From: Schmidtea polychroa
Taxonomy: Eukaryota
Reading direction: 5' to 3'
Assembly: GCA_044892525.1 (NCBI GenBank)
Contig: CM097885.1
Coordinates: 18,850,001-18,914,000, forward strand
Length of the DNA stretch: 64,000 bases
Within the stretch, counting starts at the first letter, position 1. Every line of letters begins with the position of its first letter. Made by a program: the position numbers and the translations under genes. Of this stretch, positions 14,437 through 36,441 are shown piece after piece. The notes under the pieces were generated by a model. It had not been told where the DNA came from, did not search any database, and worked only from the letters and a program-made list of their open reading frames with translations.

Positions 14437-14518
14437 TGTCTAAATAATTACACTATTACTACCACTATTATTTCATACATTTATTATCTACACTTTATAC
14501 ACGGAATTTTAATTTTTG

Positions 14519-15697
14519 TTATTGATCGGCGTAGCGGAATCCTTTGATTCGCTGCGCAATCCTCTGTCTGCACATCGGACATTCCTTTACTTTTCTACTA
14601 CATGTGGCACATGCGATCAAATGTCCGCATGGCATATGAATAACTTCTACACTCCTCTCCCAACACATAGTACATTTGATATCTCGTAAGATAGCTGTTT
14701 TGACCATTGATTCTTCTTTTATTTTTGTTTCAGGTTTTTCTCTATACTGGGTTATCGCTCTGATCATATCGTACGTTGTTGTTGGTATATGTACATTTTT
14801 CTGTAGTTTCTCTCTAATCATGTTCTTTGCCCTTGTCGTGCCTATTCCGGCTGCTTTCAACGCTCTGCACATGTTGGGTTTGTCTACCACTTCGTCAACC
14901 TCTTCCTCTGTTACTAGTACTTCCGGATATTCGGTTTCTTGTTCGTTGTGATATAGGCACCATGCTTGATGTCTAATTTCTGGTATGCCTTCTTCCGGTA
15001 ATCTCTGTTGGCTTTCGCATCTTTCACACTTTAGTATTTGATTTTCTGTTAGGTAGAACCCTCTTATTGCTAATTCAGGTCCTCTCGTATCATCTCCGAA
15101 CGTTTTCATTCTATTATCTGCTATTTGCGTGAGGAATTCCCCTTCACAAGTTGGAACATACTCATCAACGATTCTGGTTATCGCGATGCTCATTTTCCCT
15201 CCTTTTTCGTCTTCAGTTTTCAATTTCTCCAAGGCTTCGTATTTGATTTCCGGTTTGTTGTGTACATCAAATCCCAGTACGAATAGACAAGTTGGGAATC
15301 GTCTACGATGTTCCTCCTTTGGGTGTTCTCCTTTTTTCCATTCTGCTAATTTCCCTTTACAGAAACGACATGTTACTTGATCGGGTATCTCTGGTTTTCC
15401 GGAGAAGAAAAATCCGTCGCGTGCTAGCGCTCGGCTCTGTTCCTTGGTGAAAATGGTCTGATGTTCAAATGACAGATATCTCTGGTTCTCACATCTGAAT
15501 TGTTCATTATCTCCCAGTTTCAAATTTTCGTGTACCCAATTATAATCGTTTCCCATTCTCCGATAATATGCGTAACTACTTGGTTTTGTTTTGCTGACTT
15601 CCGCATCCTTCACTCTTTCTCTAGGTGGCATATTGTCCTCTTCCTCTCTCATTGTGATCGTTTTCTTTCGGATATTCGGTCTCTCTTGATTAATCAT
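14519..15697 (-). CDS. Inhibitor-of-apoptosis (IAP) protein: BIR, degenerate BIR, C-terminal RING
   Basis: LARDGFFF..DQVTCRFC..LAEW...EH....PTC (BIR); RMKTF...LAIRGFY...CERC...H...C; CTMCWER..VIHMPCGHL.ACATC....CPMCR (IAP-type RING). Confidence 0.92.
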   Translation of the reverse strand: MINQERPNIRKKTITMREEEDNMPPRERVKDAEVSKTKPSSYAYYRRMGNDYNWVHENLKLGDNEQFRCENQRYLSFEHQTIFTKEQSRALARDGFFFSGKPEIPDQVTCRFCKGKLAEWKKGEHPKEEHRRRFPTCLFVLGFDVHNKPEIKYEALEKLKTEDEKGGKMSIAITRIVDEYVPTCEGEFLTQIADNRMKTFGDDTRGPELAIRGFYLTENQILKCERCESQQRLPEEGIPEIRHQAWCLYHNEQETEYPEVLVTEEEVDEVVDKPNMCRALKAAGIGTTRAKNMIREKLQKNVHIPTTTYDMIRAITQYREKPETKIKEESMVKTAILRDIKCTMCWERSVEVIHMPCGHLIACATCSRKVKECPMCRQRIAQRIKGFRYADQ

Positions 15698-15837
15698 CTA
15701 TAATAAATTTCATCATTTCTTTTTACATTTTCTTTTTCTAATTTTTATGGTTTTGGCAAGTTACTTTACTGTATACAATAACTTTATATTTACTTTACAT
15801 CGTTTTTACAAAATATTTACAGTTCCCTTCTATCCGT

Positions 15838-17262
15838 CTATCGTATTTCTATTGTTGGTCCTTCCTCATCTAGTTCGATTAGGAAGAATATAGTGTCCTT
15901 TTCTATGTAGGACCCTTCATTAAATTGGTATAGCTGCATAAACTCTGCTACTCCTACCGCAGGATTAACCTCTGTAATCGGTTTATTCCCTGCTGGACTG
16001 GATGCTCGAAAACACATTATATGTGTCTTTTTTGCTCCTAAGAGAGATATTTTTAATCTATGTCGGAATGGCCATGCTATTAGGTCGTCAAAATCTCCTT
16101 TACAAATCTGCATATATATGGACATGCACCGATCTTTAAACTTTCCTTCACCATTTGGAAACCATCTCAATTTCATCTTGTATCCATGTTTCTTGGCGTA
16201 GAATGGTTTGCTCACTATCGTTGTCTGGATTCCTTGCTTTGCTTGCTCCATTATTTCCGTTATTCCTTGGATTTTCCACATGTATGGCAGTATTGGTAGT
16301 TCCTCTGTTGTCAGTTCCTTTGTAGTCCATTTGGTTTGTAATTTAGTTACTTCGACTAATTTGTCGTCTAATTTCAACATCCTTTGTGTTACGGCTTCTC
16401 TCGTATTTTCGAAGCTTTCCTGTGAGCTCAGCATTTCTTTTATCATGATTTTATGTGATTTGAGTTCGTCTTTGACGTCTTCAATTGCTCTTGCTGTTAA
16501 CTCTATTGCTCTCATCATCTTTTGCATGTGCTCGAATGTATTCTCCTCCACATGCTTCTTCATTTCTTCTGCTGGTAATTGTGCTCTACAGTCGAATGTC
16601 ACCATTGGGCATTTTATTGCTTTTCTCGTGCATATCTCCCAATGTTCATTTAATCTGACGTTGTTAATTTCTCCACACTCGTTTGGGCATTTCCCTGTAT
16701 ATTCGTCGCAAATCCGTCTTTCTACTGCGTTTCGATGTTCCATTTCGATTTCTCTCCAATTAGCAGTTTCTCCGCAAAATTCGCATTTTTCCGTTCGCGC
16801 TTCGCATTCCCCTTTATGTTTGGTTTTCTCTTTTCGTAAAAACTTTACCGTGCATGCTTCGCATTCCGATTCCAGATATTCGCATACGTCTGTATGGGCT
16901 CTTAACTCCTTTACTCGGCCTGTCCATTCGCATGACCTTTGGGTGCATCTTATTTTCACTTCTCTGATTTCTCGGTTCATTGCTCTATCCGGTATCGTAC
17001 CAGTGGGAACCAACTTAAATGCTTCTCCACATCCTGGACAAGTTTCTCGCTTTAGTCTGGCTAATCTTATATCACACCCTCGGCACAATCTACACCCGCA
17101 TCGAGTTTGACTTGCTCCAATTAATAATCTTCTACATGCTGTATCGGCACATAATAATCTCTCTTCGAACTCGTCCGGCTCGGCTTGGTATTTTCTCATC
17201 AACTCATAGTTAATCTTTTGTTCCTCTGCTTCTCTCCGGTTTTCCTCTGCTTTGTTTTGCAT
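15838..17262 (-). CDS. TRAF-family protein (RING-like, TRAF zinc fingers, coiled coil, MATH)
   Basis: Cys-rich N-terminus; C..GC/SC.W.G...L..H...C zinc fingers; MATH motifs WKI...SKPFY..GYKMKLR.FPNG...GDFDDLIAWPF...DTIFF. Confidence 0.92.
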   Translation of the reverse strand: MQNKAEENRREAEEQKINYELMRKYQAEPDEFEERLLCADTACRRLLIGASQTRCGCRLCRGCDIRLARLKRETCPGCGEAFKLVPTGTIPDRAMNREIREVKIRCTQRSCEWTGRVKELRAHTDVCEYLESECEACTVKFLRKEKTKHKGECEARTEKCEFCGETANWREIEMEHRNAVERRICDEYTGKCPNECGEINNVRLNEHWEICTRKAIKCPMVTFDCRAQLPAEEMKKHVEENTFEHMQKMMRAIELTARAIEDVKDELKSHKIMIKEMLSSQESFENTREAVTQRMLKLDDKLVEVTKLQTKWTTKELTTEELPILPYMWKIQGITEIMEQAKQGIQTTIVSKPFYAKKHGYKMKLRWFPNGEGKFKDRCMSIYMQICKGDFDDLIAWPFRHRLKISLLGAKKTHIMCFRASSPAGNKPITEVNPAVGVAEFMQLYQFNEGSYIEKDTIFFLIELDEEGPTIEIR

Positions 17263-17351
17263 TCTACAATGATGATTTTTAATCTTGGGATTTCTACTTG
17301 ATTATAACTCTATTTATTTACAGGATTATTTACATTTCACTCCTTTCTCTC

Positions 17352-17955: not shown

Positions 17956-20900
17956 TTATACCAGTGTCGCCATGGGGCCGGAATGCAGCGTGCGCATTCC
18001 CCCATATCTTTCGTCCGTTATTCGGTATATATCGACTTCGTGTGTCCATTCGTTCGGTGTGGGTATTCTTGGTAGTTCCGACATCCACAATCCGCTGGAT
18101 CCGGGATCCTCTACCACCTCGTATTCTTCTAGATTCAGATTCTCTGTTGGAATACCGTATTCAAATTTTTCCACTTTGGGCCATTTTCTTTGGTTTCTCG
18201 GTTTTTGTTTACATCTTTTGGTGGTTCTTATCCACTGAATCATTGCTAACGCTATTATCGTGCTTACTATCGCGCTAGTTATCCATATCATCTTTGTGAT
18301 GATCGTTGTTCCATTATTTGTTTTTTCTGTCGTTAATATTGTACTACCTGTGGTATTTGTTTCTGGTGCTTTGATTTTCTTGAATGCTTGATGTAATCGT
18401 TCCTTCTCTTTTTCTGTTAGGTGACTGTGATTTTCCCGTTTCTCTCCCCCTTTTTGATCTCGGGGTATCCACGGTATGTTTATTAATTGGGGTTTTTGTC
18501 GAGTTATTGGTTGACATACGCTGGTTCCTCTTCCTTTCTTAAGGATACATACTTGGTATCGTTCTTTCCGTTTCCCTGTCTCCATTTTAACGTCTGTACC
18601 TTTGTCTATTGGTGTTGTTGTGCAGTCGATTATTCCCGTCTTATCCATTACACATATCCTTATGATTGGTTCTCCTTCCTGGTTTTTGACTGTAATTACC
18701 TCTTCACCTTTCTTGTTGAGGTTAATAGTTATCTGCACTTCCCGTCTTTCGTCTTTAATTACTTCGTTAATCCATGTTGTTGTTGTTATTAATTCGGTTT
18801 GATTTTGCTCTGTTGTTGTTTTTGTACTAACTGATTTGTTTGGCTTCTTGGTTGTTATCCCCCTCAATGGATCTTGTTTCATTGCCATACTCTTTGGCTT
18901 GTCTTTTCTTGGTGCAGTTCTTGTTCCTTTACATACTACTATCCCTTGTGTTCCTGCGCATACCACAGTAGGGGTATTTGGTTTGACCTCTCCCCAGAAG
19001 AATTTGTGGTCTTGTGTCATATCAGTTATTATGCATATGTCTCTGTCTTCTCTGATGCATACATGTGTAATTGATCGACTCCCTTTATCTTCTATTTCGA
19101 TACCTTCTTCCAAAATGTTGAGTTGAAAATGTACTCCGGTTTCGTTGGCTCTTTCTAGCTCCATTTCCTTTGTTGATATGTCTCTACAGATGTCATAATC
19201 TCCACATAGCCTGGGATCTCTTTTTTGGCTGCTAAAAATCTTTCCTTTTGTTATCGATCTGAAATCACAACTTACTCCTGTTCCTTCCATTAGTTGCACA
19301 CATATTCCGACGGCATTTCCGTCGTAATCACTGACTTTTATCATAAATACTTCACCTTCTTGGGAAGCTTCTCTTACGATTCTCATATTTTTTGTTTCTG
19401 TTAAACAGATGGATGTTAATATTATAAATATTCTTTGTAGTAGGATTGGCTGGATTTGATTTCGACACACTATGCTATGTAGTGGGGACTTTCGTTTTTT
19501 GTTCTCCGTTTTGTCGAATCCTTGATCTTCACCTCGACATTGGTCTTCTTCGTCTTCTTCCAATTCCTCATCATCACTCGTTGTTTCTCCGCCTTCCGGA
19601 TTCTGTTCTCTGTCGTTTTCCTCTGGGTTGTTATCGTTATCCCCCATCCTTTCGTCGTCGTCGTCGTCGTCATTCCTCTCACCCGGGGTTTTCCTGAAAA
19701 TGTCGTCCTCGACATTTGCTGCTTTGATCATCTCCTCGTATTTTTTAATTATCTCTTTTTTGTCGTTGTGGATACTTTCTCGTTCTTCTTTGGTTCCTTG
19801 ATATTTCCGTTGTTTCCGGTGCCATTCCCACACTAGTATTCCTAGTTGCTTTTTCATCGCATGTGTTTTTGTGCATTTCCACCAATTACCTGTCAATTCT
19901 GTTCTATTTCTCTGTAATATTGCTTTAATGGTTTTTGGCATTGGTGGTCTTGAGTATATGGCGCTTCTTAGTACGATATTTTCGTTGTTTTGGAATTGAT
20001 TTATATCAATTACTTCCGCTCTTAATTCGTTTTGTTTCCATTTGATTAATATTGCTGCGGTTCTGTCTAAGTTTCCTCTGATGGCTTCCAGAATTGGTTC
20101 AATGCTCTGTCCCAACACCTCGGCTTCTTCGGTTGTTGCATTTCCTGTGATAAAGTTCACTATACTAGGTCTTTTTGACCTGACGGCATAACGTAATACG
20201 GTTCGTTGTTTGTTGTCTTTTTCTTTCAGCGTGGATCCCGTTCTTAATAATTCTCTGAGTACATCTCTTGACGCGCCTATTGCTATGGCTTTCATCAGTG
20301 GAGTTTTTCCTTTACTGTTTTTGACGTTTGTTGATTGTTTGCAGTTTTCCATTATTCGTATAATCTCTAAAGCTCGTTTTTCTTGTCCTGCTTTCACTGC
20401 ATGATGGATTGGCCAGTTATTACTCAAATCACTTGTTAGGAACATGATTGGTAATCTCCGGATTAGTTCATATATTTGAGTCGGTATTTGTAATCCTTCG
20501 GCATATCTTCGTCCTTTCGCATATCTTTCTGCTACTAACATTAGTTTGCCCAATACTTGGTATTTATTGGTTATATCGGCCCATTCTGGTACAATTTCTC
20601 GTGCTATTTTTACTGTCATATTCCATGTTGCTTGGCTCCTTGCCATTGCGTCAGCTTCGCTTTCTGCTTCAGTTCCTTTATGGGCGCTGCTGCTTGTTTC
20701 TCCTCTCAACATGAATATCCGTCTTGTCTGTGATCTAGTTAATCTACCGCTTACTTCTGGTTCCGTTGTGGCATTTGTTTGTGATCTCGTGATTATCCTT
20801 CTTGTTTCTGGATCTTTAGTGGCAGTTTTCGCCACTGCTTTGCATCGACATGTATTCACATAAATGGGTCTAATTAGTGGATTGTTAACCAACTTCACTC

Positions 20901-23900
20901 TAGCGTTGTTCTCGTTTACATAGATGATTTCATATGGCCCTCTGCCATTACGTTGTAATTTCTTTGCTGTTCCTGGGATTAATTCGGGTGTTTCTATAAT
21001 AACCCAATCTCCGATTTTAAATTGATGGTTTTGCACGTTCTTCTTTTTATCATGTAATTCCTTATAACTCTCTTGGTTGAATCGGATGTTCATCCCTGCG
21101 GTTTTCCATATTTCTTGCATTCTCTCCTTGAACTTTGTCACATAATCATCTATCTCCATATATTGTGAGATTGGCGGTTGGTATTCGAGATCCATCGGCA
21201 TGTTGCATTCCCTTCCATACATGAGTTTAAACGGACTCATTTTCGTTGCTGAGTGTATTGACATTCGATAAGCCATTAGGCACAACTTAATATATTCATC
21301 CCAGTCCTTTTGATGTTTACTCACGTAATTGGACATCATGTCTATTAGTATGCCGTTAAATCTTTCTGTCTGACCATTCGTTTGCGGGTGGTATGGTGAG
21401 GTTCTCAATTTGGCAATTCTAAAATAATTTGTCACTTCATTTATTATTTCGCTCATGAAATTAGTTCCTTGGTCAGTTAAGATTTGTTTTGGTGTTCCAT
21501 ATCTGCAGCAGATCTCTTCCACTAATATCCTTGCAACCGTTCGTGCTTTCTGGTCTGGCATCGCAAATGCTTCAGGGAACTTAGTCAGATAATCAGTTAT
21601 TACCAATATATACACATTTCCACTGTTAGTCTCTGGTAGTGGTCCAACTACATCCATTGCAATCATTGTCATCGGTTCTGGCGGTATCGGCATTGGTTTC
21701 AATGGTGGCTTTAGTTTACTGCCCGTTGTTTTTCTGGTTGCGCATATCAGGCAGTTCTTTATCCATTCTTTCACGTCATCGCTCATATTTGGCCAGTAAT
21801 ATTTCTGTTTGAGCCTTGCTTCTGTTTTCTTGGCTGACATATGTCCGCCCAATTTACCATCGTGGTATTGAATCATAATTGCTTTCCGTCTACTTTCTGG
21901 TAGACACATCAATCGTTTGTCGCCATCCATTACCAATAGCCATCCTTTCTCGATCGTATATCTGTGACGATTTTTCTCCATGTGTTCTTTTAGTCGATCA
22001 TCGTTGTTGAATATTTTCATATCGTTTTTTTCCAGGAACTCAATTATTAGTTTTAATTCATTGTCTTCCTTTTGTTCGTTCTTTAGATTGGTAAAATCGA
22101 TATCTTCCGCGATTATCAGGCATATTCGTCTGACGTCATGATCCATGAGTTCCTCAAATACAAATCTCGACATGCAGTCTGCATTTGCGTTTGCTTTTCC
22201 TGACTTGAATTTGATGTATGGGGAATATTCTTGTAACTGCATTGCCCATCTCATCAATCGACTAGATGCCTCTTTATGTTGGCCCAACCAAACTAGAGGT
22301 TGATGGTCCGTAGTAATAATTATCTCGTGTCCCCATAATAAATATTTGAAATGTTTTATCGCCTGAATTATTGCTAAGGCTTCTCTTTCTGTGACCGAGT
22401 AATTCTTCTCGTGTTTTTTGAACGTCTTGCTATAATATCCGATGACTCTTTCTCTTTTCTCCTCATCCCATTGTCCTAGCACAGCTCCTGATGCGTATCC
22501 ACTTGCATCAGTTGCTAATAAAAAAGGCTTTTTGAAATCTGGGTGGATTAAGATAGGCGAGGCTATTAGTTTATCTCTTAGCGATTCGAAAGCTATTTGC
22601 TGTTCCCTTTCCCACAGAAATGGAGTATCTTTTTTTGTTAGTTCTTGAATTGGTTTTGCGATAGTTGCATAATTTTTGATAAACTTGCGGTAGTATCCGC
22701 ATAATCCCAGAAATTCTTGTACCTGAGTCACGGTTTTTGGTATCGGACAATTCTTTATTTTCTCAACGTTTCTCGGATCTGGTTCTTTTCCTTTTGCCGA
22801 CACAATGTGTCCTAAAAATGTGACTCTCTCCTTTGCCCAGTCGCATTTTGACGGTTTCAATTTCAGCTTCCATTGTTTCAGTCTTATGAATACGTTTCTG
22901 ATGTCGATTAAGTGTTGCTCGAAAGTACCTGAATAAATTAACAGATCATCGATATACACCATACATTGTTTGATCCCGTGTGTCACAAAGTTCATACATC
23001 TCTGAAACGAAGCAGGTGCGTTTGTTAATCCAAATGGCATCTTTTTAAACTGATATAAATCTTTTCCGATGGTAAAGGCTGTCTTTTCTCTATCTTCCTC
23101 TTTAACTTTAATTTGCCAGTATCCACTCTTTAGATCTAAAGATGTAAAGTATGCTGCTCCATGCAACATCTGTAACATTTCGTTTATGTCTGGCAGTGGA
23201 TATGTATCTCTTTTTGTTACTGCGTTCAACCTCCGATAGTCAATACAAAATCTCTGTGTGCCATCTTTCTTTTTGACCATTACCACTGGGAATTGCCATG
23301 GTGAGCAACTAGGTTCTATTACCCCAGCATCTAACATCTTTTGTACTTCTTCCTCTGCTACCGTTTTTTGTGCTTCAGCCAATCGATATGGTCTTAACGT
23401 TATGGGTGTCTCATCTGTTAATGGTATAATGTGTTGAGTTACATCGCTAGTACCCAAATCCAAATCTGAAGCCGCAAAAATATCTTTAAACTCAATCAGT
23501 AGTTGTCTGAGTTGTTCCTTTTCGTCTTTATTTAGGAGTTCGCTATCGATGGTCCATAATTCTTTTTCGTCTGCTCCCTCGCTTTTTATCTCCGGTAGCT
23601 CAATGTTCATCATTGGTGTGAGTTTTCCAAGTCTCTCGTTTTCGTAGATTACTTTATCTTCCTCATCAAAATTGGTGATATTGATGGGTATCTCGTTATC
23701 CTCATTTATACTGACAATTTCTCTTGCCAATGGCAGCTCCCTTCTCTTCTCGAATTTTTGACTTGGTTCAAATATCATATCTCCTTTGGCTTCGTTATCG
23801 ACCTTGACATAACATATTGTCTGGGTACGTGCTGGTATTATCATTTTTTCGGAGCATCTCACTTCTGTTCTCATTGTGCATATCTGTCCAGTTTTATCTT

Positions 23901-26900
23901 TTAATTTCATGGAACTCAAATCAATCACAATTTCTTTCAATAATTCCGGCATTACATCTGTTCCAATTATACATGATACGCTTAGCTGTCTAATGACTGC
24001 GAGGTACGTTGTAACTTTAACCCCTTTATATTCAATCGTTGACCATACTCTTCCTACCACCGCTATGGATTGTTTGCTGCATGTTATTACATCCATGGTT
24101 GTCTCTTCAATGCATGGCCATAGTCTGCCTGGTAGCATATTCATATTTATTGCCGAAATATTTGCTCCGGTATCGATCATTGCATCCATTTCTATTCCGT
24201 TTACTTCGACCGTGATGGTTAATGATGGTCCGGCTGGTGTCTGCAATACCGCAATCGTTCGTGTCTCCACTTCTTGTTCTACACTTTTAGCCTGTTTGAT
24301 CATCGTTGGATCCATTGCTGCCCAATTTGGTTCATAAGCTGTTGGATAAATGTTCGGTATGGGTAATCTTCCGGTTCCCATTCTTATCCGTTCTCTCATT
24401 GTTCCTGGTCGTCGCATTGGTCCATTAGTTGGTGCTTGTAAATATGGGGTCTGTGAATACGGTGATCCCCATGGTTTCATTTTTTCGTTTTCCCAAGTGG
24501 CTGTATTTTTATTTATCAACATTGCTCCTCCTTGGTTATTATCATCGTCGTTGAAATCATCATTGTCGTTGTCACTATCATCGTCTCGTCTGAGGTTCAT
24601 CCACTTTTTCCACTTCCCGGTTCTTTTTGCTTTCTCTTGAGTTCTTTCTGCTTCTAATCTCATTATCACTTTGAACTTACGTCCGACTTCTTCGTCTGTC
24701 CCTTTCATTTGCGTTAGTATTTTCAACAATCTTTTTATTCGATGAATATCCTTTGAGTGTCCATGCAACACCATTGTTTTCGCTAAGAACGGTAAGAATC
24801 CAATTGCAAGTTTCCAATTTACTTTTCTCTCGCGCTTATAGATGTCAAAACATGCTAGCATCTGGGTTAGTATTACTCTGACTATTTGTATTATCAGAAT
24901 AATTCCGAGTATTCCTGCCATCATTTGGCCAAATACCAAAAATCGACCCCACATAGCCTTCATCATGTTTGCTGTTGCTTGTTGATAGTGACTTGGTGAT
25001 AATAATAGCTCGTAATTTGGGCTCTCCCCATAATTATTTCCTCCAGAAATAGTCACTATATTTGATAGGATCGCTTGTCTGTGTGCTGGGAATAACATGT
25101 GGGCCCTTGCTGATTCAAGATCTTTTGGTGTATATAATCCACTCTGTGATACGTCTATCGGCTTGAACTCTAATTCTGTTGTTAGTTCCGTTAATCCAAA
25201 TTTCTTGGGTGTCACTACGATTGTTTTACTTGGAAATTGAACCCATTGTCCATCTTCTTTTTCATACATTGGTCCATATGCATTACTGCAATTAAACAGA
25301 TTTGGCTGAAACCCTACCGGGTTCATTATCCTAGTGACTGCTTGCACAAACCTGGGTTTACCTTCGTGAATAATTTCGAGTTCGTTTGCACACTTATCCC
25401 TTGGTATTGTAGGGTTTTCCGGCAATCTTGCCATTATCTTTTTGCATTGGTAGGTGTACATCACTTCGCCCACGATTCGTCCGAAATATCCTTCCTGTAA
25501 TGGTAGTAGTGGAATTGCGTTATCTGGATTTGTAATCGCCATTGCTAATTTTGTTCTCAATATTTCTTTGTTGAGCAGGCAATCGTTTCTTAACAGATCA
25601 TGGTAGACTTTTTCCGTGGATGTTAATCCTCTGTGATATAAGAAATCCATCTTATTATTAGCGTATAAATATAATTTGACATCCTTTTCGCTTAGTCTTC
25701 CGACTGCATTTGCTAGGGTTCTCCGCGACAAGTAGATCCCTTTATAATTGGTGCTGATCACCATCTCATCGCATTTACTCACCATTTTGTTCTTTATGAA
25801 CCTCATTCCTATTCCATCGTCTTTGGAGATTATCGCTGTGGGTGTTACTTCCGATTCCAATTTCGATGTTATTACGTCTTCCCTGAATCCTTTCCTTGCT
25901 CTCAATTCTTCCATCGCTCGTCTCTCTGCTTCTCCTTTTGGTTCACTGTACACTTTCCCTTGGATTTCTTCGAATATTGCTGTCTTGAGTAACATTAGTC
26001 GACATACTTTCTGATCTGCGTGGTATACCAGAGTTGACATTCCGGTTGAACATGATCGATCTGATGCGAGACAGCTTGGGTATTTCTTCATTGCTTGCGT
26101 GTCAGGGTCAAAGTAGCCTTGATACTTTTCCAATTTAGCTTCGTAACTTTCTATTACGACCACTCCACTAACCAGTTGTCCGTTCAAGGTGTATGTTCCT
26201 GTCTCACATGTTCCGTCTCCTTTAGTGATTCTGCCCGCCGTATATACGCGAGTCGTTTTTATTTTTCCTGGTTCTGCAGCGATTTCAATCCCTTGCCTTA
26301 AGTGGATTCTCCCTGATCGGAACCCTTCCTCGCATTCCTCTCTTGATAGTAATATTACTGTCGATTCCAATCCTGGTTCTATGATTGTTGAGTGTGAGGA
26401 TGAACCGCAGTGATGTGCGAATATCTTTCTGGTTACCGTACACTCTTGGACCATAGTTTTGATGAAATCTGCTTCTTGATATACGTTGTACGAGACTGAT
26501 GCCATGACTGTTTGTAATTTTCTTGGGTTTGCCGCTTTACAGTCTTCCGTATCCTTTAATGAATATTTCTCATGGATTTTTATGTTGTCGCAGTCGTATA
26601 CTGCAAATGACTCCGTTCCTTTGATACACATCATCCATATCAATATCGTGGTTATTATGGCATTCATTCCCTTTCGACTTGCTCTTGGGTCGTTTATATT
26701 GATTGTTCCTTCGAATTCAGTTAGCAAATCGCGTAACTTTGCTTGCATCATTTCCGTTTGATCTTTCTTCCCAGTTGATTCGATGAAGCTTCTCCATCCC
26801 CCTTGTTCAAGTATATATGGTTCTATTGATCGTTTAATTATTTCTGTTACTGTGAATTCGTAACCCGTTGCGTTATATTTTGGCATTCGTTTTTTATATT

Positions 26901-29900
26901 GACCGATAACGTTATATACTAAATATGCTAATCCCACTAAAAATCGATTTTGGTCCTCTGATCTGCTTAATAGATGTTCCACAATTAATCTGAGTTCCAC
27001 GGGATCTTTTAACGTTAATCGAATTTTATTATCCATGATTTTCATTATTATCGGTTTCAATACTGCCCATAATTGTTTGGCTTCGGTCGGAATATTATCC
27101 TTCCTCATGACTCTTTTCACTTCTGGATTTGCTAATGCTAACATGTTGGCTAATAGGTCATTTATCCATCGTGTCCCTTGTTCTCGGACGCTTGTCTTCA
27201 CTTTCACTTGTTTTACTAATGCACTTAGTTTATCCATTTTAGTTTTTACCTGCTCCATTTGCGCCTGAACTTTGGATTTTGGTTCGATCTCTGCTTTATC
27301 TGTTTTTGGTCTTCCTCTTGTTCGTCGATCCATAGCTGTTCCGGTTTCTTTCCGTTTTGGCGGATTGTAAGTTGTATCTTTTGACGTGGTCGCTCCTGGA
27401 TCTACTCTCCAGTTGCTCCATTCATCGGTTGTGGTTACATCTTTATTGGCACCTCTTTCCACGTTATCTAAATCCGTCTCGGCTTCCGTCGTTTCCACTG
27501 GTTGTCTCTGCGCGCATACAAATCCATCTAAATCATCAGTTGTCGGTTCACCTTCGTCGATAAATAGATCTCCTGATTGCGATGCTCTCATAATCTCGCC
27601 TGCTTCTACTATCTCTTGTAATTCATCCAGTATTTCGTCTTCTCCCGTTGTTTCGATCGTCACTTCACTAACCGCATTTGGAACTTCTGGTGTGTCCAAA
27701 CTTCCTGGTTGTTGGGTGGATGATTTTTGCTTTATCTCTCTTCTCCTTAGCTCTCTACCTGCAATTTTACTCACCGTTAATCTGTTCACAATTTCTCCTT
27801 GGAGTGGTGTCACACCGATCTCAATATCGTCGTCTAATGATCGTCCCTCGTGTTGTAAGTGGAATGGGAGTTCATAAGGTATTCTCTTTTTAACTTCTCT
27901 GACTTTAGCTGTCGTATAGAATTCCTTTTCCATTGGTTCAAAATCTGGCATGAATATTTTTAATTGATATTTCTCAGGTGAGTTTTCGGCCCACTCTCGT
28001 TGTTTCCATTTCCGGATGATTTCACCAAATTGTTCAGGGTACCATACGTATACCCGTCGATATTCTTCAATCGCTTTAACGATCTTTCGTAGGTTTTGAA
28101 TCCTTTTGCATGATTCGGCTATCCATTTTGCTAGTTCTACCACCGCTCGTCGACGATTTTTCGCCCCGTTTTGTAATATCTCCATCAACTCCTTACATTT
28201 TTGTGCTTCCAACAATGTTGCTGCTTCCTCCTCATCTGCATCTGCGTCTATTGGTAGATGTCCTGAATCAGGCACTCTTCTCCTCATCATACAGATTCTC
28301 GGTTGATTTTCTGGTATGTTCAGTCGTTGGTTCATTTCTTGTTCTGTTTCAACTTCTACTCTGATCTGGATAGCATTGTTTTTCACAAATTTTGACTGCT
28401 CATTCTCAATGTAACTTAGACGTATTAATTTAGGTGTCCCAGAAGCGATATTTTCTGATGTTGTTGGTCGTTGATAGCAGGCGCTCCTTGGATCTGGTTT
28501 CAATGTTTCTTTATGCATGTTAAGGCTATCTTTCAATGGTTCGATTGCTATCGTCACTTTTCTGCTAAACGGCCATGGTACCTTGTCGTCATAATTTCCT
28601 TTGCAGATGGCGAAGAATGCCGACACATAATTTCCTTTACCTATCCCGTCTCCGTTCGGGTATATTCGCAATTTCATCTTGTACTCACCTAATCCTGAGT
28701 AGAACGGTGGACTTACTAATCGTGTGATTTTCTCTTCCTTTGCTGATTTTATCTTTTCCATCCAATTCTCAATTTTCCACGTGAATGGTGCTAACCTTAC
28801 TGGTTCTCGTATCTCCTCATCTTCTCCTGATGGTAATTCATTTTGGAATTCTTGTGGTAATATATCCTGGTAAGTATCGATCGGTTTCTCTCTTACCCAT
28901 ACTGCTGCGATCTCTTCGGGTATATTATCTATCCAATTTGGTTCCAACTTTTGCTGCTCCCAATCCCATCGAGCTTCACTTTCGATCCACACTTTTTTCC
29001 ATGGTATCAGTTTGCAATCTTCGTCATTGAAGGCTGCTAGTTTTAGTTTATCATCCTTTAGCCAATGGTTATAAATATCTATTATTCGATCCATCTTTGC
29101 TCTCATTCCCCATTGGAATCTTTTAACTTGTTGCTCGGTTTTCGTGGCGTTTTTGTGCCCACCAGATGGTTCATCCATCGCGATTATATTGATGACGGCT
29201 CCGTCTTCCCAGATTCCTAGTTCGTAAATTCCAGTTCGGTCTCCTCTTTCCAGCATGTGCCGGTTGTACATTATTATCACATCTTCGATCATTCCATCCT
29301 CACTATTTTCTCGAGCTTTTTGGATGATCTCTTGATCTATGATTTGCACTAACTCGTCAACTTGGCAATCGGGATTAACTTCTATTATTTGTTTCTCTTC
29401 ATTTGGCAACTTCACCTTTATTTTTATCGTTTCATGCTCGCATTTGGTTCTCTCGTATTCTCCGTATTTAGATATCAATTCTGTCGCTCGTTTGTCTTCG
29501 AATCTCATGATTTCCGTGTCTCGTACGTCTTTAACGAATTGTTTCATTAGTTGTGGCCATCTTTCTCTCAGTCTATTAATGTATTTCCTTGTCTGATCGA
29601 TAGCTTGTTTGACTAAGATTATTTGATTTTCTTTCATTATTTTTCGTTCGATCTTTTCCAATTCTGGTTCCACTTCATTGTTAAACACTTGTTGGATTTT
29701 CTTGAACATTTCTGCTACCGAGTCGTCATCTCTGGTTTTCTCTAAGGTTAAGATGTTAGTTTCGTTTGGCCATATCATCGCATCTACCAAATGTATGCCC
29801 ATTTTAACTTTGTAACCATCGACATATAATTGTTTATTTTTATGGCTCGTTCCCATTTTTTCCTGTACCCAGTTGTACAGTTCATCGGTATTTGTTCCTT

Positions 29901-32022
29901 TTAATTCAATAGTCTGTATCTGAATCTCGGGGTGTTGAATACTTACTTGATATTGATCTGGGCCTGCTTCCTTTAGTTTCTCTTTATATTTTGTTGCTAC
30001 ATCTTTCCATGCTGCCGTTATTATACCTCCTTCACACTGGTATACTTGAGTTATAAGTTTTAAGCATTTTCTGTATGTTAACTCGTTGATGTAGTTCTCA
30101 TTTCGCTCTATTTCTGTTACTGTGTCGAGAATTTCCTCGAATATCTCTTCTTCATCTTTTTCTATCATTGATTTCATGTCATCATTTTCACTCTCCTCAC
30201 TACTTTGAGGTGTTTCACTGTTTGGAGGTGTTTTCGGTTCGTTATTTTCCTCACTTGACTGAAATAATTCGCCTCCCAGGCTACTCACCTCACTTTTCTC
30301 ATCTTCCTGATCCGTCTGATCGCTCCGCATTTGTCTCAGCATGCTTATTTTAGCTTTGGTATGTGGTTCCTTCTTTTCAAACCACTCATTTTTCCTGAAC
30401 CAATGCTCTTTCACTTTTTCTTTTATTTGTTCCTCAGTTAATGTAGGATTTTCGTTTTTGATTCTGTCTTCGATTTTTTGTAGTAGTACCCTCTGAATTC
30501 GATTTTTTGTAATTATCTCATTGCTTTTTGGTTCGTCTTTACTCTCATCTCTCTTTTGTCTCCTTTCTTTCTCCTCTTTGGTAAATTCTTTAATCAATTG
30601 TATTTTCTCTTCACTGCTCAATTCTGTTCGTGGATCAATCTCATCTTCTTTTGTCGTTTTTATCTCCTTGTTTATTATCGGTTCACTCCCGTCGTTGTTA
30701 ACACACTGCTCCGCAGTGTGCGATTCCTCTTTATTTGTTAATCTCATCATATTTATTCTTCCGGGATTCGCTTCCCGTTGTTTCCATCTTTCTTGAATTT
30801 CTCTGGCTTCCTCGTTTTGTAATCTTTGCCATTCGACTCGTTGCTGATCTTGTTGTTGCTTACTTGGTTGGTTCCGGATTTCCTCGGTGCTCTGCATCAT
30901 GTTGATTCGTTGTTGTTGGTTATTAGTCGGTATTCGCAGGATCATATCTTTTAATTGTTCGATTTCCTGCATGAGGTTGATTTGTGTGTTCTGAACTGGA
31001 TTGTTTGATCCTGGTTGATTTGGTTTGGTTCTCATCGTGCATTCTCTTGCCATGTGTCCCGGCTGATTACAATTGTAGCAGGTTCTGGTTCCTCCTCTGC
31101 TCATAGACATCATGGGTCCTCTGCAGACATTTTCCGTGTGGCCTCTTCTCCCACACTTTTGACACATCCTTGCTTTATAACATTCATTGCTCCAATGCCC
31201 TGGTCGTTGGCATATGTTGCACGTTCGATTGTTGATGTCGTTGTTCCTGAAATTATTAGTAAAATTTTGAATATTACCTCCATTGTTTTGGTTTCTTGTT
31301 TGTGGAGTTTTGAACAACTGTTGCGATCCTGGGATAAATTGATTCATTACTGGATTTGCATTATTGACTTGGTTGTTTGTGGTTGTTGCTGTTGTTGCTG
31401 GAGCTGCTGGGGCTGCTGTCATTGCTGCTACTTGTATTGGTGTTAGGTAAGTTTCACATTTGTTAGCTATTTTTAGTGCTTCTTCCAGCGTCTCTGGTGC
31501 TCGGCATCCCAAAGTTGCTCGTATATCCTCCCGTTTCATGCCATCTACGAATACGGCTATTATTTTGTCTTCCGGAACTGGTTGATTTGAATCGAAGGCT
31601 TCTCGTGCTAGTCGTCTCAATTCGCATGCGTACAGTGCGTTGGATTCGTTATATTTCTGCTTTCGATGCAGAAAGTCTAACATTTTTCGATTTCCCTCTT
31701 TTTCGGTACCGAATGTTTTTATTAAAAATTCCTTGATCTCTTTCCACGTTCTCAACTTAGTTGCATCACATTTCGCCTCCAAGTATACATCTTGGGCGCT
31801 TCCCTTTAGATATAGGGGTATTCGTTCTCGTACGACTATGTCTGGCCAGTGACATATCGTAATGTATACTTCGAATTCCTTTATAAACGTTTCCAGCTGG
31901 TTTATATTTCCATCGAATGGCTCTCCTCGAAATTTCTCTCTGAATTCTCCAATGTTGACGTGCACATTACTTGTTTCCGGTGGGTCCGTTAGCCCTGTTA
32001 CATTTGGAATTCCGTCTGTCAT
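17956..32022 (-). CDS. Giant polyprotein Gag-UBL-UBL-MATH-UBL-Bcl2like-Env-PR-RT-RH-IN-ANK-membrane protein
   Basis: Frame is open from 32322 and the first ATG is at 32022 (the track starts at TTG 32244). CCHC x3 31039-31221; MATH ~28348-28788; DTG 24166-24174; YIDD 22945-22956; RNase H TDASG ~22500; integrase HHCC/DDE/GPY ~20900-21900; ankyrin ~20050-20415; C-terminal TM 18229-18291. Confidence 0.95.
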   Translation of the reverse strand: MTDGIPNVTGLTDPPETSNVHVNIGEFREKFRGEPFDGNINQLETFIKEFEVYITICHWPDIVVRERIPLYLKGSAQDVYLEAKCDATKLRTWKEIKEFLIKTFGTEKEGNRKMLDFLHRKQKYNESNALYACELRRLAREAFDSNQPVPEDKIIAVFVDGMKREDIRATLGCRAPETLEEALKIANKCETYLTPIQVAAMTAAPAAPATTATTTNNQVNNANPVMNQFIPGSQQLFKTPQTRNQNNGGNIQNFTNNFRNNDINNRTCNICQRPGHWSNECYKARMCQKCGRRGHTENVCRGPMMSMSRGGTRTCYNCNQPGHMARECTMRTKPNQPGSNNPVQNTQINLMQEIEQLKDMILRIPTNNQQQRINMMQSTEEIRNQPSKQQQDQQRVEWQRLQNEEAREIQERWKQREANPGRINMMRLTNKEESHTAEQCVNNDGSEPIINKEIKTTKEDEIDPRTELSSEEKIQLIKEFTKEEKERRQKRDESKDEPKSNEIITKNRIQRVLLQKIEDRIKNENPTLTEEQIKEKVKEHWFRKNEWFEKKEPHTKAKISMLRQMRSDQTDQEDEKSEVSSLGGELFQSSEENNEPKTPPNSETPQSSEESENDDMKSMIEKDEEEIFEEILDTVTEIERNENYINELTYRKCLKLITQVYQCEGGIITAAWKDVATKYKEKLKEAGPDQYQVSIQHPEIQIQTIELKGTNTDELYNWVQEKMGTSHKNKQLYVDGYKVKMGIHLVDAMIWPNETNILTLEKTRDDDSVAEMFKKIQQVFNNEVEPELEKIERKIMKENQIILVKQAIDQTRKYINRLRERWPQLMKQFVKDVRDTEIMRFEDKRATELISKYGEYERTKCEHETIKIKVKLPNEEKQIIEVNPDCQVDELVQIIDQEIIQKARENSEDGMIEDVIIMYNRHMLERGDRTGIYELGIWEDGAVINIIAMDEPSGGHKNATKTEQQVKRFQWGMRAKMDRIIDIYNHWLKDDKLKLAAFNDEDCKLIPWKKVWIESEARWDWEQQKLEPNWIDNIPEEIAAVWVREKPIDTYQDILPQEFQNELPSGEDEEIREPVRLAPFTWKIENWMEKIKSAKEEKITRLVSPPFYSGLGEYKMKLRIYPNGDGIGKGNYVSAFFAICKGNYDDKVPWPFSRKVTIAIEPLKDSLNMHKETLKPDPRSACYQRPTTSENIASGTPKLIRLSYIENEQSKFVKNNAIQIRVEVETEQEMNQRLNIPENQPRICMMRRRVPDSGHLPIDADADEEEAATLLEAQKCKELMEILQNGAKNRRRAVVELAKWIAESCKRIQNLRKIVKAIEEYRRVYVWYPEQFGEIIRKWKQREWAENSPEKYQLKIFMPDFEPMEKEFYTTAKVREVKKRIPYELPFHLQHEGRSLDDDIEIGVTPLQGEIVNRLTVSKIAGRELRRREIKQKSSTQQPGSLDTPEVPNAVSEVTIETTGEDEILDELQEIVEAGEIMRASQSGDLFIDEGEPTTDDLDGFVCAQRQPVETTEAETDLDNVERGANKDVTTTDEWSNWRVDPGATTSKDTTYNPPKRKETGTAMDRRTRGRPKTDKAEIEPKSKVQAQMEQVKTKMDKLSALVKQVKVKTSVREQGTRWINDLLANMLALANPEVKRVMRKDNIPTEAKQLWAVLKPIIMKIMDNKIRLTLKDPVELRLIVEHLLSRSEDQNRFLVGLAYLVYNVIGQYKKRMPKYNATGYEFTVTEIIKRSIEPYILEQGGWRSFIESTGKKDQTEMMQAKLRDLLTEFEGTININDPRASRKGMNAIITTILIWMMCIKGTESFAVYDCDNIKIHEKYSLKDTEDCKAANPRKLQTVMASVSYNVYQEADFIKTMVQECTVTRKIFAHHCGSSSHSTIIEPGLESTVILLSREECEEGFRSGRIHLRQGIEIAAEPGKIKTTRVYTAGRITKGDGTCETGTYTLNGQLVSGVVVIESYEAKLEKYQGYFDPDTQAMKKYPSCLASDRSCSTGMSTLVYHADQKVCRLMLLKTAIFEEIQGKVYSEPKGEAERRAMEELRARKGFREDVITSKLESEVTPTAIISKDDGIGMRFIKNKMVSKCDEMVISTNYKGIYLSRRTLANAVGRLSEKDVKLYLYANNKMDFLYHRGLTSTEKVYHDLLRNDCLLNKEILRTKLAMAITNPDNAIPLLPLQEGYFGRIVGEVMYTYQCKKIMARLPENPTIPRDKCANELEIIHEGKPRFVQAVTRIMNPVGFQPNLFNCSNAYGPMYEKEDGQWVQFPSKTIVVTPKKFGLTELTTELEFKPIDVSQSGLYTPKDLESARAHMLFPAHRQAILSNIVTISGGNNYGESPNYELLLSPSHYQQATANMMKAMWGRFLVFGQMMAGILGIILIIQIVRVILTQMLACFDIYKRERKVNWKLAIGFLPFLAKTMVLHGHSKDIHRIKRLLKILTQMKGTDEEVGRKFKVIMRLEAERTQEKAKRTGKWKKWMNLRRDDDSDNDNDDFNDDDNNQGGAMLINKNTATWENEKMKPWGSPYSQTPYLQAPTNGPMRRPGTMRERIRMGTGRLPIPNIYPTAYEPNWAAMDPTMIKQAKSVEQEVETRTIAVLQTPAGPSLTITVEVNGIEMDAMIDTGANISAINMNMLPGRLWPCIEETTMDVITCSKQSIAVVGRVWSTIEYKGVKVTTYLAVIRQLSVSCIIGTDVMPELLKEIVIDLSSMKLKDKTGQICTMRTEVRCSEKMIIPARTQTICYVKVDNEAKGDMIFEPSQKFEKRRELPLAREIVSINEDNEIPINITNFDEEDKVIYENERLGKLTPMMNIELPEIKSEGADEKELWTIDSELLNKDEKEQLRQLLIEFKDIFAASDLDLGTSDVTQHIIPLTDETPITLRPYRLAEAQKTVAEEEVQKMLDAGVIEPSCSPWQFPVVMVKKKDGTQRFCIDYRRLNAVTKRDTYPLPDINEMLQMLHGAAYFTSLDLKSGYWQIKVKEEDREKTAFTIGKDLYQFKKMPFGLTNAPASFQRCMNFVTHGIKQCMVYIDDLLIYSGTFEQHLIDIRNVFIRLKQWKLKLKPSKCDWAKERVTFLGHIVSAKGKEPDPRNVEKIKNCPIPKTVTQVQEFLGLCGYYRKFIKNYATIAKPIQELTKKDTPFLWEREQQIAFESLRDKLIASPILIHPDFKKPFLLATDASGYASGAVLGQWDEEKRERVIGYYSKTFKKHEKNYSVTEREALAIIQAIKHFKYLLWGHEIIITTDHQPLVWLGQHKEASSRLMRWAMQLQEYSPYIKFKSGKANANADCMSRFVFEELMDHDVRRICLIIAEDIDFTNLKNEQKEDNELKLIIEFLEKNDMKIFNNDDRLKEHMEKNRHRYTIEKGWLLVMDGDKRLMCLPESRRKAIMIQYHDGKLGGHMSAKKTEARLKQKYYWPNMSDDVKEWIKNCLICATRKTTGSKLKPPLKPMPIPPEPMTMIAMDVVGPLPETNSGNVYILVITDYLTKFPEAFAMPDQKARTVARILVEEICCRYGTPKQILTDQGTNFMSEIINEVTNYFRIAKLRTSPYHPQTNGQTERFNGILIDMMSNYVSKHQKDWDEYIKLCLMAYRMSIHSATKMSPFKLMYGRECNMPMDLEYQPPISQYMEIDDYVTKFKERMQEIWKTAGMNIRFNQESYKELHDKKKNVQNHQFKIGDWVIIETPELIPGTAKKLQRNGRGPYEIIYVNENNARVKLVNNPLIRPIYVNTCRCKAVAKTATKDPETRRIITRSQTNATTEPEVSGRLTRSQTRRIFMLRGETSSSAHKGTEAESEADAMARSQATWNMTVKIAREIVPEWADITNKYQVLGKLMLVAERYAKGRRYAEGLQIPTQIYELIRRLPIMFLTSDLSNNWPIHHAVKAGQEKRALEIIRIMENCKQSTNVKNSKGKTPLMKAIAIGASRDVLRELLRTGSTLKEKDNKQRTVLRYAVRSKRPSIVNFITGNATTEEAEVLGQSIEPILEAIRGNLDRTAAILIKWKQNELRAEVIDINQFQNNENIVLRSAIYSRPPMPKTIKAILQRNRTELTGNWWKCTKTHAMKKQLGILVWEWHRKQRKYQGTKEERESIHNDKKEIIKKYEEMIKAANVEDDIFRKTPGERNDDDDDDERMGDNDNNPEENDREQNPEGGETTSDDEELEEDEEDQCRGEDQGFDKTENKKRKSPLHSIVCRNQIQPILLQRIFIILTSICLTETKNMRIVREASQEGEVFMIKVSDYDGNAVGICVQLMEGTGVSCDFRSITKGKIFSSQKRDPRLCGDYDICRDISTKEMELERANETGVHFQLNILEEGIEIEDKGSRSITHVCIREDRDICIITDMTQDHKFFWGEVKPNTPTVVCAGTQGIVVCKGTRTAPRKDKPKSMAMKQDPLRGITTKKPNKSVSTKTTTEQNQTELITTTTWINEVIKDERREVQITINLNKKGEEVITVKNQEGEPIIRICVMDKTGIIDCTTTPIDKGTDVKMETGKRKERYQVCILKKGRGTSVCQPITRQKPQLINIPWIPRDQKGGEKRENHSHLTEKEKERLHQAFKKIKAPETNTTGSTILTTEKTNNGTTIITKMIWITSAIVSTIIALAMIQWIRTTKRCKQKPRNQRKWPKVEKFEYGIPTENLNLEEYEVVEDPGSSGLWMSELPRIPTPNEWTHEVDIYRITDERYGGMRTLHSGPMATLV
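24760..26667 (-). other. Envelope glycoprotein domain (chuvirus-G-like) within the polyprotein
   Basis: Internal signal MNAIITTILIWMMCIKGTES, then AVYDC..YSL....C, HCGSSSH, SREEC, GEVMYTYQC, C.NEL, SGLYT..L....MLFP; TM at 24857-24950. Confidence 0.8.
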
Positions 32023-33113
32023 TATTTCTTGACACAAAATTGTTATATTGGTTGACTCTGAACTATTTCCTTCCTCGTCTGATGATTCAATGTCACTTAT
32101 CGGATCTAGTTCGGTTCGTTTAAGATCGTCGCTGTTCTCAAATTCGTTTGTTAAACTGTCTGATTCAAATACTGTTTCTACTGATGCTGGCTTCCTGTGT
32201 AGTTTTCTGTTGGTCTTGGCCTTTTGTATCTCTTCCTTTTCCAATAAACTGAGGTTTCCTTTACTTTTTCGCCTCGTTCGGTTAGCTATGCTATCAATTT
32301 TTCCTCCTTTTAATATCCTTTGCTAAATTTTCTACTTTGTCAATCGAGCTCGATGTTTTCTAAGTATTTTTCTCGCTTTAATCTTTACGATTCTCTAACT
32401 CTTCTTGGATTTGGTTTTATTAATTTCCTTGATTCTTCGCTTCTAATTGATTTCTCTATATCTCTTGATTTCTATTGCTTTCTTGATTTCTTTGATTTCT
32501 TTCTGAATTGTTTGCTTTATTCTAAAATAATTAACACCTCTAGTACATATCATAAATTCTCTTTGTTAAACCCTTCATTTACTTTCCCTTTTCCCTTTAT
32601 TTTACTGTCCCTTCGCTTCAAATTTTCTAGCTTTTCTACACTTCTCGCTATTCGCCCCATTTTGATTTTAAGTTGATTTTAAATTATCTATAACTCGTAT
32701 CAATTATCTATATAGTCGTATCAATTATCTATCCCTTTTATTATTATCATAGAAATATAATATTAATCACATAAATATCAAAATAAACATATCATTAATA
32801 AATAAAATTCAATAATTCAACTACTATCTATTCGTTCGCTTTTCCCCATCCAAAAACTGGTTTAATTTTCGCTTGCGCCGGCGCTTTATCATAATTCTCC
32901 TCTACTCATTACATATTTATCGCACTTAATCTATTTCAGTTTAATCAATTTCATAGTTAATCATTGATGCTTTGGTTCGCGCGACCTCTACATCCACCTT
33001 TATTTACCATCGGCTCTCTGGCCGGTTTGTTCAACTCCTTTATTTTCATTTAAATCATTTCACTCAATTACCATCGGCTCCTTGGCCGGTTTAATCAACT
33101 CATTTTAATCTCA

Positions 33114-36016: not shown

Positions 36017-36034
36017 ATCCCGGCTGAGCCCCCA
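36017..36034 (-). promoter_or_regulatory. Primer binding site, tRNA-Pro-like
   Basis: Minus strand TGGGGGCTCAGCCGGGAT matches the canonical tRNA-Pro PBS TGGGGGCTCGTCCGGGAT at 16/18; 8 nt from the 5' LTR. Confidence 0.85.
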
Positions 36035-36441
36035 AATTTGTATGGTGGGTTACTGGTGGTTGAATGATTGAGTGCTGTTACCAGCGTAACCCAAAATACA
36101 ACATTGTTTTTTCCGCTTGGTACCCGTTGAGTGATCAACGTTGGTACTGTACCAAGGGTTGAGTACTCGCAAAAAGTGAGCGCATCAAAGCACTATAGTT
36201 GTCGAGTACTCCGTGGGTTCACGGACTACCGATAGAAGGTGTGTGTCCGATTTCTCAGGTCCCTTTATCAAAATTGTTTTCCCAACCTTATGCACAAACT
36301 CTCATTTCCCAGGCAATCATAAACTGTACTAGTCATTATTTTATCACTACAAAACGTGCAGTATTTTAACAAGGAACATATTATTTGAAGACTACCACCA
36401 TACATAAAAATACTACAAAACACCTAAAACCGAATATAAGT

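Follow-up and report, generated by a model that had tools for sequence, protein, structure and literature searches.

The window analysed here is the whole stretch of 64,000 nucleotides from Schmidtea polychroa (assembly GCA_044892525.1, contig CM097885.1, positions 18,850,001 to 18,914,000), which carries on its minus strand a retroelement of 34,208 bp with long terminal repeats (LTRs) and an internal region of 25,560 bp. The first open reading frame of the element (ORF1) has 4788 codons stop-to-stop, running from window position 32322 to 17956; from the minus-strand base composition, a stop-free run of 4788 codons has a chance probability of about 1e-146. This one frame holds, in order, Gag, a MATH domain, a putatively Bcl-2-like region, a viral-type glycoprotein (G), a protease (PR), a reverse transcriptase (RT), an RNase H (RH), an integrase (IN) and ankyrin repeats. 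The layout breaks the usual retroviral rule, by which env is a separate gene after pol, and raises the question of how a single chain yields a capsid and a polymerase in the cytosol and a fusogen in the lumen. Features of the element are as follows (window coordinates and strand; residues are those of the ORF1 protein; aa, amino acids; E, expectation value).

36043..40366 (-): 5' LTR, 4324 bp, TG..CA ends; direct repeat at offset 29884, 0 mismatches over the full length
6159..10482 (-): 3' LTR, 4324 bp, identical direct repeat; 4-bp flanking duplication ATAG
36017..36034 (-): primer-binding-site-like (PBS-like) 18-mer, 8 nt inside the 5' LTR, read from the sequence
17956..32322 (-): ORF1, 4788 codons stop-to-stop; first ATG 32020-32022, stop 17956-17958
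31039..31221 (-): Gag nucleocapsid with three CCHC zinc knuckles (residues 368-428), from a regular expression and Pfam zf-CCHC (E 6.1e-10)
28351..28785 (-): MATH/TRAF-C domain (residues 1180-1324), Pfam MATH_2, E 6.1e-29
26743..27225 (-): helical, putatively Bcl-2-like region with a BH2-like GGW at its end (residues ~1700-1860), weak PDB sequence matches
26608..26667 (-): internal signal-peptide-like segment of G (residues 1886-1905), cut likely after ..GTES, pattern conserved in relatives
24943..26607 (-): G ectodomain, 555 aa, predicted class III fold (residues 1906-2460), from Pfam PF24664, an AlphaFold2 model and fold matches
24850..24942 (-): G transmembrane helix (residues 2461-2491), Kyte-Doolittle 19-mer maximum 2.53, summed apparent insertion energy ~-0.1
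24766..24814 (-): G tail, a second and weaker hydrophobic stretch (residues 2503-2519), Kyte-Doolittle 1.28, summed energy ~+7.3
24217..24765 (-): charged, poorly conserved linker from the G tail to PR (residues 2520-2702), from the sequence
23941..24216 (-): retroviral-type aspartic protease, DTGA at residue 2717, from the motif and Pfam RVP and gag-asp_proteas (E 1.4e-4 to 7e-4)
22801..23277 (-): reverse transcriptase with YIDD motif (residue 3123), Pfam RVT_1, E 6.9e-35
22225..22614 (-): RNase H, Pfam RT_RNaseH (E 2.6e-38) and RT_RNaseH_2 (E 1.8e-34)
21385..21900 (-): integrase, H2C2 zinc finger and core, Pfam Integrase_H2C2 (E 1.7e-20) and rve (E 3.9e-12)
20146..20409 (-): ankyrin repeats, Pfam Ank_2, E 7.2e-8

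LTRs with TG..CA ends, a short target duplication, a PBS-like site, a CCHC-type Gag and the Pol order PR-RT-RH-IN (by Pfam domain order) are the characters of Ty3/gypsy (Metaviridae) elements. The genome has 1074 occurrences of the first 16 bases of the PBS-like site and none of the reversed control. By its sequence the host is a Burro-type giant Ty3/gypsy endogenous retrovirus, and G is the envelope module of this host element; a preliminary description, made from the letters of the window, had mentioned the capture of such glycoproteins by BEL/Pao elements, and the carrier found here is of the Ty3/gypsy type, not BEL/Pao.

The glycoprotein segment and its predicted fold

The G segment spans residues 1886-2520 of ORF1 (635 aa; window 24763-26667, minus strand) and is in frame with both neighbours, with no stop or frameshift on either side, as the preliminary description had claimed when it placed a chuvirus-like fusion glycoprotein between Gag and PR. 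Its membership of the chuvirus-type (Jingchuvirales) glycoproteins was also borne out: the segment matched Pfam PF24664 with 240.8 bits (cut-off 27; E 2.8e-71), and a scan of the whole ORF1 gave E 8.9e-68. The match lies in two stretches, the best of which covers profile positions 260-579 of 653, and 989 relatives were found at E<=1e-3. The expected signal-like peptide, ectodomain of about 550 aa and transmembrane helix are all present (residues 1886-1905, 1906-2460 and 2461-2491). The signal-like segment consists of the n-region RASRKG, the hydrophobic core MNAIITTILIWMMCI and the c-region KGTES, followed by FAVYDC.

Characters of the family found in G were the signal peptide, the [AG]YDC motif, the conserved Cys residues, the motifs GEV..C and G.Y..FP, the transmembrane helix and, in the tail, a further hydrophobic segment. 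The 9 invariant and the 21 nearly invariant columns listed for a 65-sequence family alignment all contain the residue of the window protein. The consensus of this alignment reads AYDC..SL, CGMHSH, GEV....KC and GIY...DL...R....FP; the four motifs named in the preliminary description are present and fit it, the fourth only loosely, and the term 'Cys-rich' used there was too strong, the 14 Cys of the ectodomain amounting to 2.5%, against 1.5-1.6% in the rest of the ORF1 protein. A single N-x-S/T sequon occurs in the 555 aa of the ectodomain. The linker that follows the G tail yielded just one short BLAST match among the relatives.

An AlphaFold2 model of G, computed on the family alignment, had a mean predicted local distance difference test score (pLDDT) of 88.3. 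Regarding predicted viral structures (BFVD), the best match was the glycoprotein of Tacheng Tick Virus 4 (E 5e-41, TM-score 0.60), and the top matches were glycoproteins of chuviruses, chu-like viruses and related negative-strand RNA viruses (E 5e-41 to 1e-35). Regarding solved structures, the matches listed were almost all herpesvirus glycoprotein B (gB), with a Foldseek E of 1.5e-14 and a probability of 1.00; VIA-align gave a Z of 9.7 with 393 residues aligned at a root-mean-square deviation of 6.5, and about 70 chains had a Z of at least 8. The global TM-score to gB was low (0.33-0.42), and a sequence search of the PDB with G returned nothing related (one chance match, E 1.5), the link to gB coming from the fold search alone. 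Because the AlphaFold2 model matches chuvirus glycoproteins as well as herpesvirus gB, the modelled fold is class III and gB-like, which is the outcome foreseen when a search for similarity to class III fusogens was first proposed. G shares with herpesvirus gB and with free chuvirus G the fold, the Cys pattern and a transmembrane helix followed by a tail with a second hydrophobic helix. It differs from them in sequence, structural alignments showing identities of 10-13% with gB and of 15-22% with chuvirus G, and, unlike free Jingchuvirales G, it has no gene of its own, being an internal part of a retroelement reading frame between LTRs in chromosomal DNA.

The in-frame layout in genome copies, relatives and published elements

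Out of 2852 candidate matches in the genome, 69 were scored. All 69 copies were ~100% identical in G and without internal stop in G; 53 sit within frames that reach 4784 aa or more, of which 43 measure exactly 4791 aa. A second family in the same genome (loci L017-L021) has a G ~36% identical to that of the window and frames of up to 3334-3346 aa; of the five loci examined, two are open across all 1774 codons read, and locus L019 shows the order ubiquitin-like domain (E 0.0032), Bcl-2-like domain (E 0.013), signal peptide, G and PR. Among public proteins, 12 of the 19 matches with E <1e-50 exceed 1100 aa, whereas the other 131 listed are all 877 aa or shorter. Thirteen long relatives were scanned: in 12, G is followed on the same chain by a protease of retroviral type and/or RT, and the remaining one stops shortly after G. 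Gag-like N-termini, as compared with the window element, were found in four relatives, and CCHC motifs upstream of G in several.

In a tree of 124 G domains (a quick FastTree, midpoint-rooted, with long branches flagged), a single clade of 22 rows, with an SH-like support of 99, takes in every one of the 16 long rows, and the six shorter rows of this clade include fragments with sequence upstream of the signal peptide. Since the genome copies, the second family and 12 of the 13 long relatives keep G in frame, these sequences show the layout to be no accident of the window copy. The simplest reading of the tree is that G was captured once by an ancestor of the clade, followed by long descent during which its in-frame place between Gag and PR would have persisted.

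More than one retroviral-protease-like domain per protein was seen in the relatives P0008, P0011, P0012, P0013, P0014 and P0020. NCBI lists relative P0010, a single protein with the order G-PR-RT-RH-IN, under a Flavobacteriaceae metagenome-assembled genome, where it is annotated as a hypothetical protein; it most likely comes from a eukaryotic contig that was mis-binned.

The in-frame env layout is already known, and its detection here is the rediscovery of a published feature. The novelty implied by the preliminary description therefore falls away, the same layout having been published for Burro in 2019 (PMC6431247) and gB-type GAG-ENV-POL elements being described in PMC13524379. Burro (GYPSM1) of Schmidtea mediterranea, as described by Arkhipova and Yushenova (2019; PMC6431247, citing Jurka 2007 and Grohme et al. 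2018), is >30 kb long with a 4873-aa ORF1, and has a Gag with three CCHC knuckles, MATH, BCL2-like, BIR and ankyrin motifs, and an env that stands in frame between gag and pol, more precisely between BCL2 and PR. The authors found the env to match fusion glycoproteins of arthropod and fish mononegaviruses, stressed an HHpred match to gypsy Env, linked to the fusion proteins of baculoviruses, retroviruses and paramyxoviruses, and noted the host-like motifs of the apoptosis and ubiquitin pathways. The window element is the same in its one huge ORF1, three CCHC knuckles, MATH, BCL2-like (weak here), BIR and ankyrin motifs, in the place of env, which lies between BCL2 and PR, in size (34.2 kb overall with an internal region of 25.6 kb; >30 kb and 'up to 25 kb' in the paper) and in its high copy number, with about a thousand PBS-motif matches in the genome. 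It differs in the length of ORF1 (4788-4791 codons, against 4873 aa, compared by published description) and in the fold of the glycoprotein, which is gB-like class III by the present model, against the gypsy Env/baculovirus-type link of PMC6431247. BURRO1 RNA was detected by fluorescence in situ hybridization in planarian tissue by Li et al. (2021; PMC8532177), who called it highly abundant and active.

According to PMC13524379 (eLife 2026), which cites Sacco et al. 2022 for non-canonical nematode endogenous retroviruses, gB-type is the sole kind of Env in the Ty3/gypsy elements of Nematoda, Bryozoa and Platyhelminthes, whose order is GAG-ENV-POL, and the chuvirus-like glycoprotein of mosquito elements is structurally similar to gB. 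These 'errantiviruses' share with the window element the Ty3/gypsy backbone, a gB-like Env between gag and pol, and multiple near-identical intact copies; their GAG, ENV and POL are treated there as separate ORFs, with gaps allowed, whereas here all three share one frame, which also holds many host-like domains. Neither 'Burro' nor 'Schmidtea' occurs in PMC13524379. Anakin, a mosquito BEL/Pao element (Dezordi et al. 2020; PMC7642597), is likewise an LTR retroelement that captured a chuvirus-type glycoprotein, on a BEL/Pao backbone in place of the Ty3/gypsy backbone found here. For Roo, Tas and Cer-7, which are further BEL/Pao elements, the same paper puts the env-like genes downstream of the polyprotein, whereas G of the window element lies upstream of PR and in frame.

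Added here are the direct assignment of a class III gB-like fold, evidence for the conservation of the in-frame layout and of a putative internal signal-peptidase site, both across the clade and in two deeply diverged families of one genome, evidence that the second hydrophobic stretch is ancestral to the glycoprotein family, and the idea of the signal peptide as an anchor of the Bcl-2-like domain. By term search, PMC6431247 does not contain 'signal peptide', 'topology' or 'class III', and has 'transmembrane' in another section only; term searches of the Burro and gB-type Env papers cited showed no treatment of single-chain membrane topology, of signal-peptidase processing or of a link between Bcl-2 and the signal peptide, and further literature searches brought up no other paper on the matter.

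Internal signal peptide, proposed membrane topology and expression

The segment preceding the ectodomain was surveyed in 23 proteins with >60 aa upstream of [AG]YDC. After a hydrophobic core, position -1 holds a small residue in 21 of them (Ala in 15), and in 22 the residue at -3 is small or aliphatic; the putative cleavage site lies two residues ahead of [AG]YDC. Where the signal peptide is N-terminal, the same -1/-3 pattern is seen in 63 and 68 of 74 forms. The internal signal peptide thus looks functional, and looks conserved as such.

In the window copy the signal peptide opens with a Met (Met1886). A Met in a position to initiate it was seen in ~8 of the 23 relatives (read by eye from the rows); it is absent in ~15, among them P0007-P0013, P0016 and P0018, which make up most of the long relatives nearest to the window element, and also in the second family of the same genome. 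Since this Met is mostly absent in relatives, separate initiation at G is, on these alignments, not a conserved requirement. It is rather unlikely that G or G-Pol is made from a subgenomic mRNA with a cis- or trans-spliced leader, starting at Met1886, with Gag made from full-length RNA and the in-frame arrangement a by-product of packing. This alternative would account for the ATG that opens the signal peptide of the window copy and for the similarly placed Met in the minority of relatives; retroviral env is normally expressed from spliced RNA, and trans-splicing to a leader occurs in planarians. Against it stand the many relatives without the Met, the purine-rich character of the 60 bases 5' of the ATG, which hold no pyrimidine tract, and the fact that no relative has a stop after G, so that a G-Pol fusion would still be made. 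Contigs from four runs guessed to be RNA cover the stretch, and starts, strands and levels are not readable from contigs; of the nine joints listed in them, none has the CT..AC ends that a GT..AG intron on the minus strand would show and none falls at the borders of G, which is uninformative on splicing.

A second hydrophobic stretch after the transmembrane helix had been noted early on as a possible complication for the topology. A homologous stretch is found ~10-12 residues after the transmembrane helix across an alignment of free chuvirus-type glycoproteins, by which the stretch is ancestral to the family and inherited from the free viruses. In the window element it contains Pro and Lys in its core, and its summed insertion energy is ~+7.3, against -0.1 for the transmembrane helix; the scale values were summed with no position weights, and this is a crude measure. 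The lowest summed score among free-virus versions is +2.9. The stretch is not less membrane-prone in long-tailed forms, with a median of 5.9 for proteins with >250 aa after the transmembrane helix (n=9), against 6.2 for standalone forms (n=21; Mann-Whitney p 0.84; the anchor-based script caught 41 proteins). From the transmembrane helix up to the second stretch the net charge is +2, and over the 15 aa that come next it is +4; by the positive-inside rule the latter would place PR-RT-IN in the cytosol, and the charge pattern as a whole fits a cytosolic Pol. The second stretch is thus probably not membrane-spanning, and the early worry is largely answered by its inheritance from free chuvirus G and its weak hydrophobicity, with the reservation that some versions score as low as +2.9.

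It is quite improbable that the second stretch and the transmembrane helix span the membrane as a hairpin, which would bring the linker, PR, RT and IN into the lumen or give G a topology other than the proposed one. The conserved position of the stretch in free chuvirus-type glycoproteins and the fairly hydrophobic versions speak for a hairpin, as does the report that some gB-type Env ectodomains are flanked by two transmembrane domains (PMC13524379), which concerns the flanks of the ectodomain and not the tail. It is opposed by the Pro and Lys in the core and the gap between the two summed energies, by the charge of the next 15 aa, by the lack of a hydrophobicity difference between long-tailed and standalone forms, and by the consideration that a lumenal Pol would be unable to meet the cytosolic Gag and RNA. 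That G is no longer a fusogen, being a passenger or having been turned to some different use (receptor interference or cell-to-cell spread in the animal, for instance), is highly improbable: the lone sequon would fit, and the near-identical genome copies are uninformative on selection, but the family-invariant Cys and other conserved residues are all kept, the model of G is confident and complete, and the intact in-frame G in relatives at 35-45% identity and in the 36%-identical family of the same genome is hard to explain without purifying selection.

In flavivirus, pestivirus and alphavirus polyproteins, internal signals and stop-transfer helices thread the chain through the membrane of the endoplasmic reticulum (ER); host signal peptidase cuts on the lumenal side and the viral protease on the cytosolic side, and the capsid keeps a signal-derived membrane anchor. 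ORF1 resembles these polyproteins at the sequence level in having an internal signal with a signal-peptidase-type site, followed by a stop-transfer transmembrane helix. The likeness is one of sequence features alone; the upstream cytosolic part is far longer here (1885 aa), and the viruses named are RNA viruses without reverse transcription. A threaded polyprotein is nevertheless plausible as the best-supported reading of ORF1 expression, favoured because the signal-peptidase-type site is kept in 21 of 23 proteins and the start Met is not conserved.

Under the threaded-polyprotein reading, a single mRNA would be translated as one polyprotein, with Gag and the host-like domains made in the cytosol. 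When the internal signal (residues 1886-1905) emerges, the chain would be targeted to the ER, the 555-aa ectodomain would be translocated, and signal peptidase would cut after ..GTES. The strong transmembrane helix (2461-2491) would stop transfer, and the basic tail and PR-RT-RH-IN would stay cytosolic, with the weak second helix on the membrane and not across it. Pol would be tethered to the Env tail via the charged linker until the protease of the element frees it, and the core of the signal peptide would be left behind, maybe as a C-terminal membrane anchor of the Bcl-2-like domain. To the whole, namely a Burro-type envelope module with a captured class III G in a threaded polyprotein with cytosolic Pol, we assign a probability of roughly 0.6.

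Several points weigh against this account. A signal-peptidase cut would separate Gag from Pol, and Pol packaging would need another route; Gag, Env and Pol would be made 1:1:1; and the signal sequence would emerge after 1885 residues. The Met at the start of the signal peptide of the window copy makes separate initiation possible, the second stretch is conserved family-wide with some free-virus versions at +2.9, which makes a hairpin possible, and the hydrophobicity scale behind these scores was a crude one, summed unweighted. The Bcl-2 assignment, finally, comes from sub-threshold matches alone.

Regarding this last assignment, a PDB sequence search with the region upstream of G gave 14 matches, all of them to the BH2 region of Bcl-xL and all weak (E 1.1-2.1), and the region of the window element had no Pfam Bcl-2 match. 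In relatives, PF00452 scored below threshold (12.7-20.1 bits, cut-off 31.4); of seven relatives scanned, three had such a match in this position (E 9.6e-4, 0.055 and 0.2), as did the second family (E 0.013), each ending ~20 to 60 residues before the hydrophobic core. An AlphaFold2 model of the region on a 9-row alignment had a pLDDT of 48.9, which is not good enough for the fold to be searched. In cells, Bcl-2 proteins are tail-anchored; because of this, and because the region directly precedes the signal peptide, the hydrophobic core left by signal-peptidase cleavage could serve as the anchor of the Bcl-2-like domain. More tentative is the combined proposal that in this clade Pol is delivered as Env-Pol and not as Gag-Pol, signal peptidase cutting the chain where G begins, with PR-RT-IN carried on the tail of the fusogen, entering the particle from the membrane side and released by the protease, and with the cleaved signal peptide anchoring a Bcl-2-like protein; we hold it to be possible but rather unlikely. 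If it were true, one hydrophobic segment would serve two proteins.

Other parts of the element and its surroundings

The C-terminus of ORF1, after integrase and the ankyrin repeats (residues 4290-4788), is an apparent second type I membrane protein. Its 369-aa part has 6 N-x-S/T sequons, 3.3% Cys and Ser/Thr-rich runs, and basic residues follow the transmembrane helix; no family was found for the module in Pfam, in the protein Atlas or by BLAST against the relatives collected. Paired hydrophobic segments after integrase also occur in four relatives (P0008, P0010, P0012 and P0023). Between ORF1 and the 3' LTR lie five accessory ORFs.

17959..19455 (-): C-terminal module of ORF1, with a signal-like stretch, a 369-aa sequon-rich part, a transmembrane helix and a 90-aa tail, from hydropathy and composition
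10837..17301 (-): five accessory ORFs between ORF1 and the 3' LTR
15838-17301 (-): TRAF-like accessory ORF (zf-TRAF and MATH)
14519-15697 (-): IAP-like accessory ORF (BIR and RING)
12838-14439, 11900-12709 and 10837-11862 (-): three accessory ORFs without a family found

A leader of ~3.7 kb (32323-36016, minus strand) separates the PBS-like site from ORF1; it has no ORF of at least 200 aa and contains an exact 131-bp tandem duplication (33114-33375). Each LTR includes a short-period repeat array with a 9-bp register (8136-8364 and 38020-38248). Pieces resembling the inner end of the LTR (positions 4276-4376, 9841-10060, 39725-39944 and 53750-53955 for the repeat as a whole) come back outside the element at 67-90% identity, and another repeat pair of 108 bp flanks the element (2503-2610 and 5853-5960). 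The LTR-like pieces outside the element and the flanking 108-bp pair are probably older fragments of related elements.

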